Made by a program: the position numbers and the translations under genes
The notes under the pieces: model-generated
The model's input: only the letters and a program-made list of their open reading frames with translations
What the model was told of the DNA's origin: nothing
Database searches by the model: none
Assembly: GCA_018970425.1 (NCBI GenBank)
Contig: JAGWWK010000001.1
Span: 49,004-113,003, forward strand
Reading direction: 5' to 3'
Source: Patescibacteria group bacterium
GTDB lineage: Bacteria > Patescibacteriota > Minisyncoccia > Phycocordibacterales > Phycocordibacteraceae
DNA: 64,000 nucleotides
Shown here: one piece after another, positions 796 to 9,591 of the stretch
How the letters are laid out: every line of letters begins with the position of its first letter
Position numbering within the stretch: position 1 is the first letter of the stretch

Positions 796-1836
796 ATGGC
801 CAAGCTTACATTCAAGCCAAAAGACGTCTCAAAGCGGCTCGTCGACATTCTCCCGGAGCGCTCTAAAGACGTCATCACTTCCCGCTATGGCCTATTGGGT
901 AAAAAGCAGTCTGAAACTCTCGACGCTATTGGCAAACGCTATGGTATTACACGCGAGCGCGTGCGACAGATCGAGAATCACGCCCTCAAACAGATTCAAG
1001 ACTCCCCTGTCCTAGTCAAAGAAACTGACTCTCTGACTCAACTTGAGGCAGCGATTCGCGAACTGGGTGCCGTGCTACCAGAACACACTATCCTCTCTGA
1101 GTTCGCAACAGACCCTGAAACCCAAAATCACCTCTATTTCCTTCTGGTTGTCGGCAAGCCGTTCGCTCATCGCAAGGAGGACGATCACTTCAAGCGACGC
1201 TGGTACGTCGACGAGTCAGTAGCAAAAGCCGTCGAGGATGCGCTGAAGACCGTCCATGGCAAGGTTAAGTCAACTGATGTCGTGACCGAGGATATGCTGG
1301 TCGACCATGTGCTCTCGTGCATGGAGCGCGTAAATATGAAGTATAAAAATGCGGAGACAGCGAAGCGCTGGCTGGAGCTCTCCTCATGCCTTATGCGTAA
1401 TCCTCTCGGCGAGTGGGGTCGCACTACTGCGCCTGGCATCAAGCTCAAGAATATCCGTGACCATGCGTACGTAGTCTTGAAGCGCCACGGCTCCCCTATG
1501 CACTTCCGTGAAGTCGCGAAGGCAATTGAAAAGACCTTTGGGAAAAAGGCTCATCAAGCTACGACGCACAACGAACTCATTAAGGATGCGGAGCGCTTTG
1601 TTCTTGTCGGGCGCGGGCTGTACGCCTTGAAGGAGTGGGGGTATCGCTCAGGACACGTCATCGACATCATCAAGGCAAATCTCGCGGAACATGGTCCAAT
1701 GACACAAGAGGCAATCATCAAGGCGGTAGGCAAGGAGCGACATGTAAAGCGTAACACCATACTTGTAAACCTTTTGAATAGTAAAGAGATACTCAAGCAG
1801 AAAGACGGAACGTACGCGCTCGCTACAAAACGCTAA
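796..1836 (+). CDS. DNA-binding protein with N-terminal sigma-70 region 4 HTH and C-terminal HARE-HTH winged helix
   Basis: N-terminal LGKKQSETLDAIGKRYGITRERVRQIENHALKQI is typical sigma region 4.2. C-terminal PMHFREVAKAIEKTFG...FVLVGRGLYALKEWGY matches the HARE-HTH of RpoE-delta. Confidence 0.7.
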   Translation: MAKLTFKPKDVSKRLVDILPERSKDVITSRYGLLGKKQSETLDAIGKRYGITRERVRQIENHALKQIQDSPVLVKETDSLTQLEAAIRELGAVLPEHTILSEFATDPETQNHLYFLLVVGKPFAHRKEDDHFKRRWYVDESVAKAVEDALKTVHGKVKSTDVVTEDMLVDHVLSCMERVNMKYKNAETAKRWLELSSCLMRNPLGEWGRTTAPGIKLKNIRDHAYVVLKRHGSPMHFREVAKAIEKTFGKKAHQATTHNELIKDAERFVLVGRGLYALKEWGYRSGHVIDIIKANLAEHGPMTQEAIIKAVGKERHVKRNTILVNLLNSKEILKQKDGTYALATKR

Positions 1837-1870
1837 GCCGACTCCCCTTGCGCTTTGGTATCATGCGCAT

Positions 1871-3109
1871 ATGCGATACCGAGCACTACTCCGCGCTCTG
1901 GCGTTGGGAATACCTACCGTCACACTTCTTCTCATTTACTTCGCGCCATACGTAGCGGCATTTCTCTACACGGTACTCGCCGCTCTCGCTCCGCTCTGGC
2001 TCCCAGTGCTCCTTTTGGTAGTGCTCTGGCCGCTGTGGTTGCGCACAGTGCGATCCCTCTACGTTTCGCGTATACGATATGTGACGCTCGAGCTTAAGCC
2101 CGGTGCGCAGACACCGCGATCTGCGCATCCGATGGAGCTCATTCTGTACTCGCTCTACTTCCGGACAGATGTGTCGCGGGCGAGCGCACTTTGGCGCGGC
2201 GTTGTCCGCGTGCCATGGTCGTTTGATGTGGTCGCAACGAACGGCTCAGTTCGTTTTTTTGTACATGTGCCGGAGAAGCATCGACCCGCTGTTGAGGGCC
2301 GTATCCGCGCAGAGTATCGCGACATAGATATTGACGAAGTGACTGACTATGCACGCGAAATACCATTTAGTCCGTTTGAATGGCGACTCGTGATGCGTGA
2401 GTACGCTCTTGAAAAAAGCGACGCGTATCCGATCCGCACATATGTTGCCGATGAGCATGGAAAAACTCGTAGAGACACATTCCTTGAGCTCGTTGAAGAG
2501 CTGTCGGGCCTCGGTCCTGAGGAACACATATGGATCTCGTACCTTATTCGGCCGCACCAAAGAGACTGGTCCCCGGGCTTTTGGGGCTTTCTTGAGGTTC
2601 CGCGGGATACGCTTCACGAGGATGCATCTCGGGCGATCGCTGCGATCATCGGTCCCTCCGGCGATATGCGCAAGCTTCCGCATTCACAGCAAGAGCTCAT
2701 TGAGCGCATTGAACATGCACTTTCTAAGCCATCGTTTGATACCGGCATTCGTGCAATGTACATCGCACGACGCAATGCGTTCGATGACCGGCGAGCAAGT
2801 ACACTTGATACCCTCTTTGATACGTTTGACGATCCGGTATTGAACGGTATTGCACCCTACGATCCGCGCGAGCGGGTCCCGTGGCCACTTTCTGATGTAT
2901 TTCGCGCTGTACCGATCCTAGATATGGAGTACTTTTTGTCACTGTATCGTCGTCGTGCGTTTTTCGCCCCGCCGTATTATGGTGCGCCGAGCATCTTTAA
3001 TACTGAAGAATTAGCGACTCTCTTCCATCTGCCGCGTGCTGGGAAAACAAGTTCTCTGTCACGAGCGGGCGGCTCTCTCCTTACGCCTCCTGACAATCTG
3101 CCGCTCTAG
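1871..3109 (+). CDS. Hypothetical membrane protein, 2-3 N-terminal TM helices plus a large soluble domain
   Basis: Long ORF with a hydrophobic N-terminus. Stop lies 1 nt before the mltG ATG. No recognised motif. Confidence 0.55.
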   Translation: MRYRALLRALALGIPTVTLLLIYFAPYVAAFLYTVLAALAPLWLPVLLLVVLWPLWLRTVRSLYVSRIRYVTLELKPGAQTPRSAHPMELILYSLYFRTDVSRASALWRGVVRVPWSFDVVATNGSVRFFVHVPEKHRPAVEGRIRAEYRDIDIDEVTDYAREIPFSPFEWRLVMREYALEKSDAYPIRTYVADEHGKTRRDTFLELVEELSGLGPEEHIWISYLIRPHQRDWSPGFWGFLEVPRDTLHEDASRAIAAIIGPSGDMRKLPHSQQELIERIEHALSKPSFDTGIRAMYIARRNAFDDRRASTLDTLFDTFDDPVLNGIAPYDPRERVPWPLSDVFRAVPILDMEYFLSLYRRRAFFAPPYYGAPSIFNTEELATLFHLPRAGKTSSLSRAGGSLLTPPDNLPL

Positions 3110-4038: not shown

Positions 4039-5040
4039 ATGGCACGGGTATTTGTAGGCCTATCCGGTGGCGTTGATAGCGCCGTCGCCGCACACCTTCT
4101 TATCGAGGAAGGACATGACGTTACTGGTGTGTTTATACGCGGGTGGGAGCCGGATTTTCTGGCGTGCAGTGGGGCTGCGGATCGCTTGAGCGCCATGCAG
4201 GTAGCCGCGCACCTAGGTATACCATTTCGAACCTATGACCTATCAGAGGAGTACAAAGCGTCAGTAGTCGATGCGTTTGTCGCTGAGTATCGCGCAGGAA
4301 GGACGCCGAATCCAGATGTCTTGTGTAATCGGTTCATAAAATTCGGCAGTGCATGGGAGCGTGCGCGCGCGGACGGAGCAGAGTATTTCGCGACAGGTCA
4401 TTACGCTGACACGAACGGTGCTGTGTTGCGCGCAGCGCGCGATGCAACAAAAAATCAAACGTACTTTCTTTGGACACTCACTCGAGCGGACCTTGAGCAC
4501 ACGCGTTTTCCGCTCGGGAAGATGTTGAAGACCGAAGTACGCGCGCTCGCTCGACGCGTGCGCCTGCCGAACGCCGCGCGTAAAGACTCGCAAGGTCTTT
4601 GTTTTCTCGGAGATGTCGACATGCACCGGTTTCTCAAGCGGTACTTGCCGAGTGAGCCGGGACCGATACTCTACAACGGAGCGACTATTGGCACACATGA
4701 CGGCTCTTGGTTTTACACTCTCGGCCAGCACGTTGCTGCCTCATCAAAAGAGCGCCTGTATGTGGTAGATAAGCGCGGCAATGAGCTGATCGTGAGCGAG
4801 ACGCCCGCTCCGCTCACGCAAGCGACCACGTGCACGCTTCTCAGCGAGAGCTATGTTTCAGGACAGCCTCCGCAGGGCATTGTTCGCGCCGAGTACCGGT
4901 ATCATGGGCCGCAGGTGCGGGCGACTGTAGATCAGTCGATCGTGACATTTGAAAAACCGGTTCTAGTAGCAAAAGGGCAGTCAGTCGTCTTTTACGATCA
5001 GCAGGGAGTGGTCTGCTACGGAGGCGGTATTGTTGCTTGA
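4039..5040 (+). CDS. mnmA: tRNA-specific 2-thiouridylase MnmA
   Basis: PP-loop SGGVDSAV, GHYA motif, KNQTYFLW. Confidence 0.9.
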   Translation: MARVFVGLSGGVDSAVAAHLLIEEGHDVTGVFIRGWEPDFLACSGAADRLSAMQVAAHLGIPFRTYDLSEEYKASVVDAFVAEYRAGRTPNPDVLCNRFIKFGSAWERARADGAEYFATGHYADTNGAVLRAARDATKNQTYFLWTLTRADLEHTRFPLGKMLKTEVRALARRVRLPNAARKDSQGLCFLGDVDMHRFLKRYLPSEPGPILYNGATIGTHDGSWFYTLGQHVAASSKERLYVVDKRGNELIVSETPAPLTQATTCTLLSESYVSGQPPQGIVRAEYRYHGPQVRATVDQSIVTFEKPVLVAKGQSVVFYDQQGVVCYGGGIVA

Positions 5041-5220
5041 CGCTCCGGCTCAGGGTGCTACTATCGACTCTTAACCTTAACAAGTGGTCACATGCTGCTG
5101 AGTAATCAGACCGAAGCGCCGAGCGCCTTCACGGAAAGTCCTTTCTGTTTTTTAACGCTTGCAGTCATAGCGGGTGCGCTCTTGTTTCTAAACCGCAACG
5201 GCGAATCGCCTCGCTAGTGA

Positions 5221-5226
5221 TATGAT
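5221..5226 (+). promoter_or_regulatory. -10 box TATGAT 6 nt upstream of the ATG at 5233 (leaderless architecture)
   Basis: TATGAT-ggcagt-ATG. Confidence 0.4.
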
Positions 5227-5232
5227 GGCAGT

Positions 5233-6054
5233 ATGCCAGAGATAGTTAAAGGCGACGGTTCTCGCGAGCTTTTTAACATCAACAAGCTCGCTGACTCGCT
5301 CATTCGATCAGGTGCTCCGCGCGACCTCGCCATCCGCGTTGCCGAGAACATCGGCTCGACGGTCATTGACGGGATGACGACGCAGGAGATTTACCGCGAC
5401 GCGTACCGCCTGCTCCACAAGGAAGAACGCACGGTAGCGGCCCGCTACTCGATGCGTCGAGCAATACTCGATCTCGGACCGTCCGGTTTCCCGTTTGAGG
5501 ATTACGTATCTGAGCTTATGCGCGCGCGAGGGTATGCCGTGCAAACGCGCGTTATGGTCCCGGGTAAGTGCGCTGATCACGAAGTGGATATCGTCATGCG
5601 CAAGGACAATCGTGTCATCGGTGCGGAGCTTAAGTTTCATAACGAGCCAGGGTACAAAACCGACATCAAGGTAGCGCTGTACGTGCGTGCGCGTTTTTCA
5701 GATATTGAAGCGCGAGGTGAGTCGAGCGGTGAGTCGCACATCCACGAGGGGTGGCTCATAACAAACACCAAGTTTACTGACAATGCTATTGCCTACGCCA
5801 AGTGCGCCGGCATCCATCTCCTTGGCTGGGACTACCCAGAGCGAGGAAATCTTGACGACATTGTGAAAGAAACAAGACTTTACCCCGTCACGGTACTGAC
5901 GTCGCTGACAAGCGCTGAAAAGACTCGCCTCCTCGCCGCGAACATGCCGCTGTGCCACACCGTGGTCGATCCAGAGGCGCTCCGCCGCGCCGGAATACCT
6001 GAGAAAAAGATTGCCGGAGTCATTGCGGAGAGTACGCGCATTTGCAGCATCTAA
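5233..6054 (+). CDS. ATP-cone domain fused to a Mrr-like (PD-(D/E)xK) restriction endonuclease domain
   Basis: N-terminal IVKGDGSRELFNINKL...AARYSMRRA matches the ATP-cone. Middle region has D-x-VDIV...AELKFHN (D/ExK) and a Mrr_cat-like TKFTDNAIAYAK tail. Confidence 0.7.
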   Translation: MPEIVKGDGSRELFNINKLADSLIRSGAPRDLAIRVAENIGSTVIDGMTTQEIYRDAYRLLHKEERTVAARYSMRRAILDLGPSGFPFEDYVSELMRARGYAVQTRVMVPGKCADHEVDIVMRKDNRVIGAELKFHNEPGYKTDIKVALYVRARFSDIEARGESSGESHIHEGWLITNTKFTDNAIAYAKCAGIHLLGWDYPERGNLDDIVKETRLYPVTVLTSLTSAEKTRLLAANMPLCHTVVDPEALRRAGIPEKKIAGVIAESTRICSI

Positions 6055-6057
6055 CGT

Positions 6058-6894
6058 ATGGCGTGGGCAAGCAAAACATTTGATCCGGGTGCGTCGGAGC
6101 CGTTCAAGTTAAGCCGGTCAAAACTGGACCTTTTTACCGACTGCCCACGCTGCGCGTACCTTGATTTGCGTCTCGGTGTGAAGCGCGTCTCCGGACCATC
6201 TTTCACGCTCAATAACGCGGTTGACGAGCTTCTAAAGCGTGAATTCGACGCGCATCGCGTGCGAGGGACCGTGCATCCGCTTGCTGCAGCTTATGGCGTC
6301 AATGCGCGCCCGTTCGATGATCCGCGTATGGAAGAGTGGCGCGATGCCCTGAGGCGAGGGATCGCTACGCATCATAAGCCATCCAACCTTATTCTGCGCG
6401 GCGGTGTGGATGATGTGTGGCAAACGGACGCAGGGGAGCTCATCATCGTAGACTATAAGGCCACATCTAAAAAAGAAGCGCCAAAAACTGCGGGCGATCT
6501 GTACGACTCATATAAAAAGCAGATTGAGATTTATCAGTGGCTATTTCGGCAAAACGGATTTTCCGTATCTCCGACTGCCTACTTTGTGTATGTTAACGGA
6601 CGATCCGATGCTGTGGCGTTCGACGCCAAGCTCGAATTTGATGTGAACTTGATCGCCTATACAGGTAACGACTCATGGGTCGATGATGCGCTCATGCGGC
6701 TGAAGGAAATGCTCATGAGTGAAGAGATTCCGAAAATGGGCACAGCATTCGGTGGGGGTCCATGCGACTTTTGTACCTATCGCGAGGCAGCTGGCAAAGC
6801 ACTTCTTGCGCAGCATGGCACGGTACGTGAGAGTAAGAAGAAAGAGGAAGAAAAACCGCGAAAGCCGGCTCTCGGGACCGGATCATTGTTCTAG
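6058..6894 (+). CDS. Cas4-like / RecB-family PD-(D/E)xK nuclease with four Cys (probable Fe-S cluster)
   Basis: N-terminal LFTDCPRCAYL, then IVDYK, QIEIYQWL (QxxxY), and C-terminal CDFC. Starts 3 nt after the upstream gene. Confidence 0.7.
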   Translation: MAWASKTFDPGASEPFKLSRSKLDLFTDCPRCAYLDLRLGVKRVSGPSFTLNNAVDELLKREFDAHRVRGTVHPLAAAYGVNARPFDDPRMEEWRDALRRGIATHHKPSNLILRGGVDDVWQTDAGELIIVDYKATSKKEAPKTAGDLYDSYKKQIEIYQWLFRQNGFSVSPTAYFVYVNGRSDAVAFDAKLEFDVNLIAYTGNDSWVDDALMRLKEMLMSEEIPKMGTAFGGGPCDFCTYREAAGKALLAQHGTVRESKKKEEEKPRKPALGTGSLF

Positions 6895-6926
6895 AGACGT
6901 AGAAACTGCAAGGAGCATGAGTCCTT

Positions 6927-7655
6927 CTACCGCCAGTCGATGGCGCCACGGCCGTGCGCTACTAAGTATTCATTAGCTCGCGCAAAGTGATTGTTACCGA
7001 AAAAGCCTCGATGCGCGGAGAGTGGTGACGGGTGCGCTGATTCAAGTATGAGGTGTTTAGTGCTATCGATGAGGTGAGCTTTTTTACGCGCGTACGACCC
7101 CCAGAGCAAAAAAACGACATGCTCCGCTGCGTCGGAAACTCCTTTGATCACGGCATCCGTAAACTGATGCCAGCCGTATTCTGCATGCGAGTTTGCTAAA
7201 CCGCTTTCGACCGAGAGTGATGCATTGAGAAGTAATACACCCTGTTCTGCGAAGCGAGTAAGATCCGGGTCATTGGCGGTAGCGAAGCCTTCTCGACGGA
7301 GCTCCTTAAAAATATTTGCGAGGGAGGGCGGGACGCGCGCGCCTGCGCGCGCCGAAAATGCGAGTCCGTCGGCGACGCCCGGGGTGTGGTACGGATCCTG
7401 ACCAAGGATCACTACGCGCACATCGGCAGGTGCAATCATGAACGCTCGCGCGAGATCTGCCCTATTGGGTAGTGCGGTACCGGCGCGGTACGCGCGCTCA
7501 ACTTTCTCTTGAAGTGCCAAGAAGTATGGCTTTTCAAATTCCGAGCTGAGGAGGCTCGTCCACTCCGGCCCAAGCGTCAGTGGTGCGGTACTCGGCCGAG
7601 AGGTGTCTGAGCTACCAGATGTGCGCACGTTTTTCCGGGGGGCGATAGAGAGCAT
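6927..7655 (-). CDS. ung: Uracil-DNA glycosylase (family 1)
   Basis: VVILGQDPYHTPGVADGLAFS and HPSPLSA motifs. Start is uncertain: the ORF overlaps the pepO 3' end by about 44 nt. Confidence 0.85.
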   Translation of the reverse strand: MLSIAPRKNVRTSGSSDTSRPSTAPLTLGPEWTSLLSSEFEKPYFLALQEKVERAYRAGTALPNRADLARAFMIAPADVRVVILGQDPYHTPGVADGLAFSARAGARVPPSLANIFKELRREGFATANDPDLTRFAEQGVLLLNASLSVESGLANSHAEYGWHQFTDAVIKGVSDAAEHVVFLLWGSYARKKAHLIDSTKHLILESAHPSPLSAHRGFFGNNHFARANEYLVAHGRGAIDWR

Positions 7656-9591
7656 CGCCTTCAGTCACGTTGTACGTGTCGTAAAAGCCCGGCACATGCG
7701 CGAGCGGTCCATTGATCCTAAACTCCGCGGGCGAGTGTGGGTCCGTGAGGATAGCCGTTTTCGCGAACTCAAGCCGTGACACTTCTTTTTCCTGCTGAGC
7801 GAAGCCAAGAAAGAAACGCTCTTCCGGCGTGAAGCCGCCTACGGTCGTGCGCCCGTGCTTGTCGAGCCACCGTTGGTATGCATCAAACGCGATGACTGCG
7901 CCGCCGAGGTCCGCAATATTTTCTCCAAGCGTCAGTTGGCCGTTCACCGGTACGCCATCGATCGAGAAACCACCGTACTGCTCGACAAGGAGGGCAGCCT
8001 TCGCTTCAAATCTGGCACGGTCCTCAGGAGTCCACCAGCTCTTCATGTTTCCTCGCTCATCAAATTTTGAGCCTTGGTCATCAAACGCGTGGGTAAGCTC
8101 GTGCCCGATCACTGAGCCGATGGCTCCAAAGTTCACACCCATATCGCCCTCGGGATCAAAAAACGGTGGCTGGAGAATTGCTGCAGGAAATACAATTTCA
8201 TTCAGGGAAAAGCTGCAGTATGCATTGACAGTCTGCGGCGTCATAAACCACTCGGTCCGGTCAACTTTTTTACCGAGCTTTTTAAGCTCGCGGCGATGCT
8301 CATATTCTGAGGAGCGTACGATATTGCCAAAGTAATCGTTAGGCGAGAGCTCAAGTCCTCGGTACGTGCGTCCTCGTTCTGGACTACCGATTTTTCGCTG
8401 CACTGCGCGCAGTTTGCGTACAGCGAATTTTTTTGTCTTTGGACTCATCCAGTCAAGCGTTCGCATCCGGCGCTCGTAAGCCTGAAACAAATCGTCTACG
8501 AGCTCATGCATGCGCGAGGCGGCGCGCTTTGTAAAGTGCGTGCGTACGTAGAGGCGCCCGAGCGCAAATCCTACGGTTCCGTTCACCGACGCGAGTGAGC
8601 GACGCCACAGCGGCTTCATTGACTTGAGTCCGTACAGAGTTTTGCCATAGAAGGCAAAGCTAGCACGAGCAATTCGTGGCGTAAGATATGGCGCCGCTTC
8701 GAGGAACAGGTGGAAGCGAACATAGGTCTTTATGTCATCTACCGGTACATCCGTAATGAGGCGAGCCGCTGCTTCAATAAAGTCGGGTTGCGCGACAATC
8801 GCGTAGTCGAGTGTTGTGACGCCGGCGTTACGCAGGTACGACTCGATAGGGAATGGTTTGCAGAGCGCAATAAGCTTTTTCAGCGTGAGCTTGTGATATG
8901 TTTTGTCAGCATCGCGCGCATCTTCTTTGCGCATACTTGCGCTTGCAAGAGCCGTTTCCACTTTAAGAACCGTGTCTCTCGCGCGCTCTGCGTCAGCCCG
9001 GGAGAGCCCCAGAAGCTGATGCATTGTTACAACGAAGTTTCGATACGCAGACCGAACGCGTTCAAACTCAGCACCTGACTCCAAGTAGTACTCACGATCT
9101 GGCATACCGAGACCTGACTGAAAGAAGTGGAGCGCATACCGTTCACTATTCCGCGCGTCCTGATCTATCGCAAACGCCCATGGTACGCCGATCCCAAAGC
9201 GTTCTAAGTCACCAAGCGTTCGAGCGAGTGAAGCGACATCGTGTATTGCGTCAATCTTCGCGAGATACGGGGCAAGTGGTCTAATGCCGAGCGCACGCCG
9301 TTTTGACTCATCCATACCGGAGCGATACATCGCCGCGACGAGCGCCTCGTCAGACCCCTTTTTAGGCCTAGAGCGAGCACATGCTTCAACTATCGCCCGA
9401 AGCTCATCATCAGTCCGGCGACGCAGAATGTTAAAGGACCCCCAGCGAGCCTCAGTGTGGGGGATTTTCGCGCTATCGACCCATGACCCTACAGCGTACC
9501 GATAAAAGTCGTCCTGCGGCCGTACTCCCCGGTTCATAGCTTTGAGGTCAAACCCCCACGATCGGTGCTTCATAGGGGCAGTGTAGCGCAT
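7612..9591 (-). CDS. pepO: M13 family zinc endopeptidase (PepO/neprilysin-like)
   Basis: VIGHELTHAFD (HExxH) and ENIADLGG motifs. Confidence 0.9.
   Translation of the reverse strand: MRYTAPMKHRSWGFDLKAMNRGVRPQDDFYRYAVGSWVDSAKIPHTEARWGSFNILRRRTDDELRAIVEACARSRPKKGSDEALVAAMYRSGMDESKRRALGIRPLAPYLAKIDAIHDVASLARTLGDLERFGIGVPWAFAIDQDARNSERYALHFFQSGLGMPDREYYLESGAEFERVRSAYRNFVVTMHQLLGLSRADAERARDTVLKVETALASASMRKEDARDADKTYHKLTLKKLIALCKPFPIESYLRNAGVTTLDYAIVAQPDFIEAAARLITDVPVDDIKTYVRFHLFLEAAPYLTPRIARASFAFYGKTLYGLKSMKPLWRRSLASVNGTVGFALGRLYVRTHFTKRAASRMHELVDDLFQAYERRMRTLDWMSPKTKKFAVRKLRAVQRKIGSPERGRTYRGLELSPNDYFGNIVRSSEYEHRRELKKLGKKVDRTEWFMTPQTVNAYCSFSLNEIVFPAAILQPPFFDPEGDMGVNFGAIGSVIGHELTHAFDDQGSKFDERGNMKSWWTPEDRARFEAKAALLVEQYGGFSIDGVPVNGQLTLGENIADLGGAVIAFDAYQRWLDKHGRTTVGGFTPEERFFLGFAQQEKEVSRLEFAKTAILTDPHSPAEFRINGPLAHVPGFYDTYNVTEGDALYRPPEKRAHIW

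Follow-up and report, generated by a model that had tools for sequence, protein, structure and literature searches.

Genes A and B, two adjacent reading frames in a 64,000-nt stretch of DNA from a Patescibacteria group bacterium (contig JAGWWK010000001.1, positions 49,004 to 113,003, hereafter the window), may encode a pair of nucleases that break down DNA under nucleotide control to recycle nucleotides. This reading is tentatively preferred over its rivals, at a probability of roughly 0.38. Judged from its sequence and predicted fold, gene A encodes a PD-(D/E)XK nuclease with intact active-site and ATP-cone residues and a C-terminal double helix-hairpin-helix ((HhH)2) domain, and gene B encodes a nuclease of the Cas4/RecB superfamily. 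Both were recovered as open reading frames (ORFs) on the forward strand, where the preliminary description of this DNA had placed them (gene A at 5233-6054 and gene B at 6058-6894, positions being counted from the start of the window), and a spacer of 3 nt separates the stop of A (6054) from the start of B (6058).

In the proposed mechanism, the N-terminal ATP-cone of A would bind ATP or dATP and switch the AF1548-type PD-(D/E)XK core on or off, either through an LGPxGFxFE linker or by a change of oligomeric state, while the C-terminal (HhH)2 domain would hold the DNA without sequence specificity. A would act as a stand-alone DNA endonuclease that is gated by the adenine-nucleotide pool. B, as a Cas4/RecB-type exonuclease, would resect the ends made by A and free mononucleotides. 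The pair would run when the nucleotide pool is low and would be shut off when it is full. Gating of cleavage by ATP/dATP occupancy of the cone is proposed by analogy with ribonucleotide reductase (RNR) and the repressor NrdR, in which ATP or dATP on the ATP-cone alters oligomeric state and activity. Nucleotide binding, the direction of regulation, the DNA substrate, the cooperation of A with B and the conversion of fragments into mononucleotides by the partner exonuclease are all presumed. The reading is favored because A recurrently pairs with exonucleases and with genes for nucleoside monophosphate (NMP) recycling in other lineages, and further because the active site and linker are invariant, the fold of B lies near 5′-3′ DNA exonucleases, and the genes are inherited like housekeeping genes. 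It would also suit bacteria of the Candidate Phyla Radiation (CPR), to which the Patescibacteria belong, because these cells are nucleotide-auxotrophic: as a rule, they do not make nucleotides de novo and rely on salvage.

The domain composition of A was established by profile searches. Residues 3-77 match the Pfam ATP-cone PF03477 (29.2 bits, cut-off 25.8) and residues 85-197 match Mrr_cat PF04471 (34.7 bits, cut-off 21), while residues 217-270 match AF1548-like_C (PF22357) at 21.5 bits, slightly below the cut-off of 23.9. Over the nuclease and C-terminal domains, A shares both sequence and fold with the AF1548 family (PDB 1Y88; PF22357), and a phmmer comparison with 1Y88 gives E = 3e-32 across residues 91-270. 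The fusion of an ATP-cone to an Mrr-type PD-(D/E)XK core, which had been read from the sequence earlier, is confirmed in this way, and the strings on which that reading relied (IVKGDGSRELFNINKL, AARYSM, HEVDIV, and AELKF) are all present in A. Of the profiles that had been suggested for the two proteins, ATP-cone, Mrr_cat, and PDDEXK_1 score above their cut-offs. Three points go beyond the preliminary description: A has an (HhH)2 domain at its C terminus, it belongs to the AF1548 family, and databases already give its architecture a name.

In alignments of 52 and 21 homologues, which reach from the CPR to Archaea, the catalytic D119, E132, and K134 never vary. The linker residues G82, P83, G85, F88, and E89 are likewise the same in members from the CPR, from other bacteria, and from Archaea, and K6, G9, K18, and T50 of the ATP-cone are conserved among the homologues. 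The AlphaFold2 (AF2) model of A has a mean predicted local distance difference test score (pLDDT) of 85.7 and is divided into three parts. The N-terminal part takes on the ATP-cone fold, with a β-hairpin over a four-helix bundle, and the C-terminal domain resembles the N-terminal (HhH)2 domain of RAD51 in structure comparison. The pLDDT falls to about 60 at residues 61-80 beside the linker LGPSGFPFE, which may serve as an allosteric relay. No match to the Mrr_N winged-helix is found in A, and the ATP-cone occupies the N terminus.

A combines features of several known systems without coinciding with any of them. The sensor is the same domain as in RNR and NrdR by profile and fold, and it agrees with theirs at the conserved Lys, Gly, Lys, and Thr, but the output domain is a nuclease instead of a reductase (RNR) or a Zn-ribbon repressor (NrdR). 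With Mrr and the Type IV restriction endonucleases, A has the catalytic fold and the D...(D/E)xK motif in common. It differs from them by the missing Mrr_N domain for recognition of modified DNA, by the lack of a defense context, and by its conserved housekeeping behavior; the patchy, mobile, defense-island distribution of Mrr is not seen for A, which keeps a fixed syntenic position and is inherited vertically. The fold of A is also similar to those of the ligand-activated defense nucleases Can2, Card1, Cap4, and NucC. Compared to Can2, Card1, and Cdn1, which join a CARF domain to a nuclease, A carries an ATP-cone in place of CARF, its presumed ligand is ATP or dATP instead of cyclic oligoadenylate, and its context is housekeeping instead of CRISPR type III. 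A fold similarity to NucS/EndoMS is present as well, but the NucS N-terminal domain is absent, there is no relationship at the sequence level, and the tail motif of the pair is located on B, not on A.

AF1548 itself, from Archaeoglobus fulgidus, was deposited as a structural-genomics “protein of unknown function” (1Y88), and the crystallized chain of 199 amino acids lacks an ATP-cone, unlike A. When AF1548 was used as a query, a 99%-identical protein of 265 amino acids with an ATP-cone was found, and the ATP-cone is present in nearly all AF1548 homologues from Archaeoglobi, Korarchaeota, Bathyarchaeia, Aenigmarchaeota, Nanoarchaeota, and Altiarchaeales. The 1Y88 chain, crystallized in 2004, and the old gene model are therefore most likely truncated at the N terminus and missing the regulatory domain. 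As a practical correction, PDB 1Y88 should be read as a structure that probably lacks its regulatory domain.

The architecture of A is old, widespread, already named in databases, and uncharacterized. An exhaustive search of 50%-identity representatives assigns 446 clusters with E ≤ 1e-30 to the family, and almost all cluster representatives are 265-295 amino acids long and match A from end to end. They are distributed over Archaea and Bacteria, including Paceibacteria, many archaeal phyla, Bacteroidota, and Chlamydiota. Close homologues of A and B come nearly all from metagenome-assembled genomes of Patescibacteria/CPR, where they are titled “ATP cone domain-containing protein,” “restriction endonuclease,” or “PD-(D/E)XK nuclease family protein” by NCBI; PF03477 is precomputed on most A homologues. 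Full-text literature searches retrieved no functional study of the A family and no paper that describes the fusion of an ATP-cone with a nuclease, which agrees with the earlier statement that no function had been assigned. The sole mention found is in the 2007 Global Ocean Sampling (GOS) paper, where AF1548 is predicted as a restriction endonuclease. No experimental characterization of the combination was found in the literature, and its kin are ligand-gated PD-(D/E)XK nucleases on one side and ATP-cone allostery on the other.

The partners of A outside the CPR link the family to nucleotide recycling. Full-length homologues with 37-40% identity to A are found on plasmids of Pontibacter (Bacteroidota) and Criblamydia (Chlamydiota). 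On both plasmids, A heads an operon in which it is followed by a metallo-β-lactamase (MBL)-fold hydrolase, a thymidine-phosphorylase-family protein, and a ribose-phosphate pyrophosphokinase. In profile searches, the hydrolase is identified as a β-CASP nuclease with Beta-Casp and RMMBL domains, the phosphorylase falls into the archaeal-type AMP/thymidine phosphorylase family (above the TIGR02645 cut-off), and the kinase scores above the cut-off for ribose-phosphate diphosphokinase. A metagenome scan seeded on the non-CPR bacterial branch of A yielded 80 loci, 58 of them with enough downstream sequence. In 28-29 of these 58, the gene next after A encodes the β-CASP nuclease, the phosphorylase and kinase follow in about nine metagenome loci (e.g., L099, L102, L116, L117), an AAA_28/dNK-like kinase comes after A in four, and a Usp protein precedes A in eight. 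A B-like gene is present in none of the 80 loci. In Bathyarchaeia (L091/L092, 3463-6873), a ribose-1,5-bisphosphate (R15P) isomerase (above the TIGR00511 cut-off) and an AMP phosphorylase (above the TIGR03327 cut-off) are followed by A, which overlaps the 3′ end of the AMP phosphorylase gene by 11 nt. This locus ties the A family to the archaeal pentose-bisphosphate pathway of AMP degradation.

A can stand alone. Where a partner is conserved, it is exonuclease-like and comes from either of two unrelated families, and in three lineages the operon reaches on into the chemistry of NMP phosphorylases and phosphoribosyl pyrophosphate (PRPP). A more general claim is that the A family represents the first nuclease to be set allosterically by the ATP/dATP pool and forms a regulated entry to nucleic-acid-to-nucleotide recycling, with a Cas4-like exonuclease as partner in the CPR, a β-CASP exonuclease elsewhere among bacteria, and, for some lineages, AMP phosphorylase together with R15P isomerase or PRPP synthetase. 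This claim is rather on the unlikely side. As an observation in its own right, the operon of A, β-CASP nuclease, phosphorylase, and diphosphokinase recurs in bacteria that are not related to each other, and it has the look of a recycling cassette, so far undescribed, that leads from nucleic acid to PRPP.

Gene B had been described as a Cas4/RecB-family nuclease with CxxC...CxxC cysteines and IVDYK and QxxxY motifs, which holds at the superfamily level only. Residues 18-243 match PDDEXK_1 PF12705 at 47.9 bits (cut-off 22), while the Cas4 equivalog TIGR00372 is matched by residues 116-196 only, at 27.6 bits against a cut-off of 65. Among 67 homologues, C29-x2-C32, C236-x2-C239, D118/D119, D132-Y-K134, and Q155-x3-Y159 are invariant. 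The AF2 model (pLDDT 88) finds its top PDB matches by Foldseek in Cas4 (7mi5, 4ic1), EXO5, the AdnAB nuclease domain, RecE, and MGME1. B is a distant member of the Cas4/RecB/lambda-Exo clade and no Cas4 orthologue, because these matches reach a Foldseek probability of 1.0 at TM-scores of only 0.3-0.44. The enzymes of this clade are 5′-3′ DNA end-processing exonucleases, some of which contain Fe-S clusters. Among them, B shares its fold with the AddB/AdnAB nuclease domains, eukaryotic EXO5, MGME1, and RecE/lambda Exo and is distinguished as a small stand-alone protein that has no helicase partner, a cysteine pattern of its own, and a C-terminal LF tail.

The best structural matches of B are the Cas4 proteins SSO0001 (4IC1) and that of the Cas4-Cas1-Cas2 complex (7MI5), with which it shares the RecB motifs II and III, QxxxY, and cysteines on the N- and C-terminal helices. 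In the model, the cysteines of B occupy the same topological places as the cluster ligands of Cas4 and AddB, but they are arranged as 2+2 (CxxC...CxxC) and not as 1+3 (C...Cx2Cx5C), and the TM-scores to Cas4 are 0.33-0.44. C29/C32 and C236/C239 form a putative metal or Fe-S site. No cas1, cas2, or CRISPR is found in the neighborhood in the window or in the related loci with called genes. A true Cas4 identity for B was rejected on the TIGR00372 score below cut-off, the different cysteine pattern, and the lack of cas genes.

B ends in a Lys/Pro-rich tail of low pLDDT. Among the 120 closest homologues, 34 carry a long Lys/Pro/Thr-rich tail that leads to a terminal [ST]-[LM]-F, and the other 86 mostly have a short poly-Lys end. 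The long tails consist of a low-complexity linker of 25-60 residues before the terminal motif. In the species-level loci, all 30 genuine long tails end in LF within two residues (e.g., EQSLFS, TGSLF, DLGLFG), and they occur in both subtypes of B that are introduced below. The sole apparent exception, locus L078, is an artifact of masked N. The same masked run, seen as X in the translation, also accounts for a Rosetta-stone-like fusion of B to a uracil-DNA glycosylase (UDG) in L078 (9600-9720; 414-residue ORF), which was discarded. The tail looks like it carries a conserved terminal docking motif. The β sliding clamp (DnaN) may be its docking target, although the terminal [ST]-[LM]-F covers only the S-L-F part of the clamp consensus QL[SD]LF.

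A B-like nuclease of 334 amino acids with 41% identity is also encoded on the Flagellatimonas plasmid NZ_CP092105 (L088, 6965-7969). It lies among hypothetical genes, with a nucleotide-kinase-domain gene and a helicase-related gene 3-4 kb off on either side, an arrangement that suggests a mobile-element setting for more distant B relatives outside the CPR.

The pairing of A with B was surveyed in 80 loci, one genome per species, all of which belong to the Paceibacteria (Kaiser-, Yonath-, Taylor-, and Adlerbacteria-like). In all 80 species-level relatives, A keeps the same place within a conserved block of housekeeping genes, whose order is sigma-like gene, DUF8128, mltG, mnmA, A, (B), (MGMT-like), (ung), (M13 peptidase), and alaS, where brackets mark genes that are not always present. 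Of 77 informative loci, 36 have a co-directional B gene less than 300 nt downstream of A and 54 have one within 2 kb, and the A-B spacers are 2-40 nt in 34 species. The survey that the preliminary description had called for returned a pair that recurs in Paceibacteria; both genes are housekeeping and have no defense-gene flanks. Its notion of a two-gene module is upheld by these counts only in part, as the link is looser than that between mnmA and A. The A-B pairing is specific to the Paceibacteria and was not seen in any non-CPR lineage of the A family that was examined.

The identity of A correlates with that of the sigma-like gene (rho 0.68) and of alaS (rho 0.56), because of which A is judged to be inherited vertically at housekeeping rates. 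In contrast, the identity of B is uncoupled from that of A (rho 0.26), since the B gene that follows A is of one or the other of two subtypes, however closely the genomes are related: B1, which is like the gene of the window (65-83% identity), and B2 (about 50%). Swaps are exemplified by L006 (A 83%, B 53%) and L082 (A 47%, B 75%). The pattern points to replacement of B in situ or to its transfer. As the divergent B1 and B2 both hold the slot, it also suggests selection for a B-type nuclease in the position after A. Overall, A and B are core, vertically inherited housekeeping genes in the Paceibacteria.

Several findings weigh against DNA recycling as the function of the pair. The ATP-cone motif reads KGDG in the CPR members of the A family and not the canonical KRDG of the archaeal members, which is a further difference from the RNR and NrdR cones. 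Eight of the nine archaeal lineages examined have A on its own, in varied and unrelated surroundings. The β-CASP partner contains an “RNA specificity” domain, and RNA could be the substrate of the A family. Within 8 kb on either side of A, the CPR loci contain no AMP phosphorylase, R15P isomerase, or PRPP synthetase; instead, the neighbors of the pair include the DNA-repair genes ung and an MGMT-like gene with a PCHR motif, which favors a role in repair. The link of mnmA to A is tighter than that of A to B (at most 300 nt in 45 of 72 loci; co-directional within 2 kb in 68 of 72). In 19 species loci, A and B are separated by unrelated genes, namely an MgtC-like membrane protein (identified by eye) and a small uncharacterized protein, and 22 species loci, mostly Yonathbacteria-like, have no B within at least 3 kb of A. 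The adjacency and the 3-nt spacer are weak evidence for a dedicated module, because short intergenic distances are general in compact genomes.

The main rival is an excision-repair or recombination pair that is gated by dNTPs, which is fairly unlikely. Here, A would be an endonuclease specific for lesions, mismatches, or DNA structures, like NucS/EndoMS or Hjc, and its ATP-cone would permit incision only while the dNTPs needed for resynthesis are at hand. B would be a 5′-3′ excision or resection exonuclease brought to the DNA by its C-terminal LF motif, e.g., via the β sliding clamp. Some relatives carry a tight, co-directional operon of A, B, MGMT-like gene, orf, and UDG (L181, 4162-7032, with 2-8 nt spacers; L001, 6001-9324), whose MGMT-like proteins of 85-93 amino acids keep the PCHR active site. 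In the window, ung abuts B but is inverted compared to these relatives, and the MGMT-like gene is missing. Repair is further suggested by the repair and replication exonucleases among the fold neighbors of B, by the terminal [ST]-L-F on a disordered linker that resembles the clamp motif, by the (HhH)2 domain that is typical of DNA-repair proteins, and by the NucS-like fold. However, the block also includes unrelated housekeeping genes (mnmA, mltG, M13 peptidase, alaS), which makes the neighborhood weak evidence; outside the CPR, the A family is linked to nucleotide-recycling genes and a β-CASP RNase-type nuclease and not to repair genes; and about two-thirds of the B homologues have no tail, clamp binding being a prediction. 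The option of a dNTP-regulated repair (or metabolic) nuclease that was raised earlier is compatible with the evidence.

Alternatively, A and B could be independent neighbors that are held together by conserved synteny, with B as a slowly evolving, CPR-wide replication or repair exonuclease and A as an autonomous nucleotide-gated nuclease, as in most Archaea. This is unlikely. It is in keeping with B being both the commoner gene (more than 7127 homologues in a 90%-identity database compared to 3495 of A) and the more conserved one (67-70% identity at rank 120 compared to 56%), with the 22 Paceibacteria loci and every examined non-CPR lineage in which A occurs without B, and with the low A-B correlation, the insertions, and the tighter mnmA-A link. 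Independence is harder to reconcile with the slot directly after A being kept by both B subtypes, with the 2-40 nt spacers, and with the pairing of A with another exonuclease family in about half of the loci of another bacterial branch, by which the arrangement of endonuclease and exonuclease recurs.

A compact antiphage or anti-mobile-element system, in which a nucleotide-pool-sensing, restriction-like endonuclease is joined by a Cas4-like accessory nuclease, had been proposed in the preliminary description and is very improbable. Mrr- and Cas4-type folds are common in defense systems, and the fold of A resembles defense nucleases. PADLOC gives weak matches to Cas4 and CARF-nuclease models, but the PADLOC and PHROGs matches of the pair are to generic nuclease cores only and to no system-specific model. 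Neither protein has a match among 50,697 phage records, and IMG/VR contains no relative of A. A B2-type gene is present on five IMG/VR contigs; in the one inspected, it lies beside large methyltransferase-like and ATPase-like ORFs, but this contig also has CPR chromosomal-type genes such as mltG. The genes keep their place in the block in all 80 species, are inherited vertically, and diverge slowly; the GC content of the pair equals that of its flanks, and neither mobile-element nor defense neighbors are seen. The cognate methyltransferase of restriction-modification systems is not found: methyltransferase, helicase, and cas genes are absent within 5 kb on either side of the pair by ORF and Pfam profile analysis, as had been noted, and the related CPR loci with called genes contain no methyltransferase, cas gene, or CRISPR. 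The plasmid homologues of A lie in metabolic operons. A defense function was rejected on the generic PADLOC matches, the lack of matches in the phage collection, the absence of A from IMG/VR, and the housekeeping context, and the A-B pair should not count as a candidate defense system.

The inspected contig (L177, 9-5717) encodes the B2-type nuclease directly downstream of ORFs of 716 and 948 amino acids, which by eye look like a methyltransferase and an ATPase of restriction or defense type. It is filed as viral, carries mltG, and looks like a CPR chromosomal fragment in which B can adjoin a probable defense insert without being part of it.

If the ATP-cone controls a nuclease in A, this would be a new output for the well-studied sensor of RNR and NrdR. 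Should the recycling reading be true, control by the ATP-cone would extend from dNTP synthesis (RNR, NrdR) to the supply of dNTPs and NMPs by degradation of nucleic acids, and it would be explained how nucleotide-auxotrophic, ultra-small bacteria throttle the scavenging of DNA. As CPR bacteria must take nucleotides from outside, a nucleotide-gated, DNA-degrading pair would be a missing regulated step in their lifestyle. The findings concern a large uncharacterized family (the 446 clusters at 50% identity), which is part of the core in Paceibacteria.

Table 1. Features of genes A and B, their flanking genes in the window, and the plasmid operons headed by A homologues.
Feature	Sequence	Position	Strand	Basis
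Gene A: ATP-cone / AF1548-type PD-(D/E)XK nuclease / (HhH)2 protein, 273 aa	window	5233..6054	+	ORF
ATP-cone of A, residues 3-77: β-hairpin, then four-helix bundle	window	5239..5463	+	profile, fold
Linker LGPSGFPFE of A, residues 80-89, from ATP-cone to nuclease core	window	5470..5499	+	conservation
PD-(D/E)XK (Mrr_cat) core of A: E117/D119, E132-x-K134	window	5485..5823	+	Mrr_cat match
AF1548-like (HhH)2-type C-terminal domain of A, residues 217-270	window	5881..6042	+	AF1548-like_C match
Gene B: Cas4/RecB-superfamily PD-(D/E)XK nuclease, 278 aa	window	6058..6894	+	ORF; PF12705 47.9 bits
CPRC (C29, C32) of B, N-terminal	window	6142..6153	+	invariant in 67 homologues; at start of helix 30-39
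Catalytic motifs of B: GGVDD (D118/D119), IVDYK (D132, K134), QxxxY (Q155, Y159)	window	6409..6534	+	invariant; region of Cas4-profile matches
CDFC (C236, C239) of B, C-terminal	window	6763..6774	+	invariant; at start of last helix 237-265
Lys/Pro-rich C-terminal tail of B, terminal GSLF (SLF = 6883-6891)	window	6784..6891	+	low pLDDT there
mnmA, upstream neighbor most conserved beside A	window	4039..5040	+	Pfam tRNA_Me_trans
ung, family-1 uracil-DNA glycosylase, convergent with B	window	6927..7655	-	Pfam UDG; GQDPYH and HPSPLS motifs
Pontibacter plasmid operon	L086, NZ_CP021236	1972-6597		
Criblamydia plasmid operon	L087, NZ_LK031773	6998-11605		

The neighbors of the pair within 5 kb on either side are all housekeeping (Sigma70_r4/HARE-HTH, DUF8128-like, YceG/MltG, MnmA, M13 peptidase, AlaRS), and ung was found convergent just downstream of B, as had been described. 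An Rfam scan of 4800-7200 revealed no element in or around the pair, by which a regulatory RNA upstream of A was rejected, and across the whole window one tRNA is the only RNA gene in Rfam. A promoter and terminator scan gave no signal above chance. In some relatives, a small signal-peptide-like ORF lies between mnmA and A; it is absent from the window and unrelated to the pair. The conserved block opens at 796-3109 of the window with a Sigma70_r4 and HARE-HTH protein of 346 amino acids, followed by a protein of 412 amino acids that is the counterpart of the DUF8128 protein of the relatives and has no Pfam match here. Both types of protein are syntenic across the Paceibacteria and uncharacterized. 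The annotated start of ung (7655, reverse strand) overlaps the 3′ end of the M13 peptidase ORF (7612-9591, reverse strand) by 44 nt (7612-7655), and the true start of ung may be an internal ATG.

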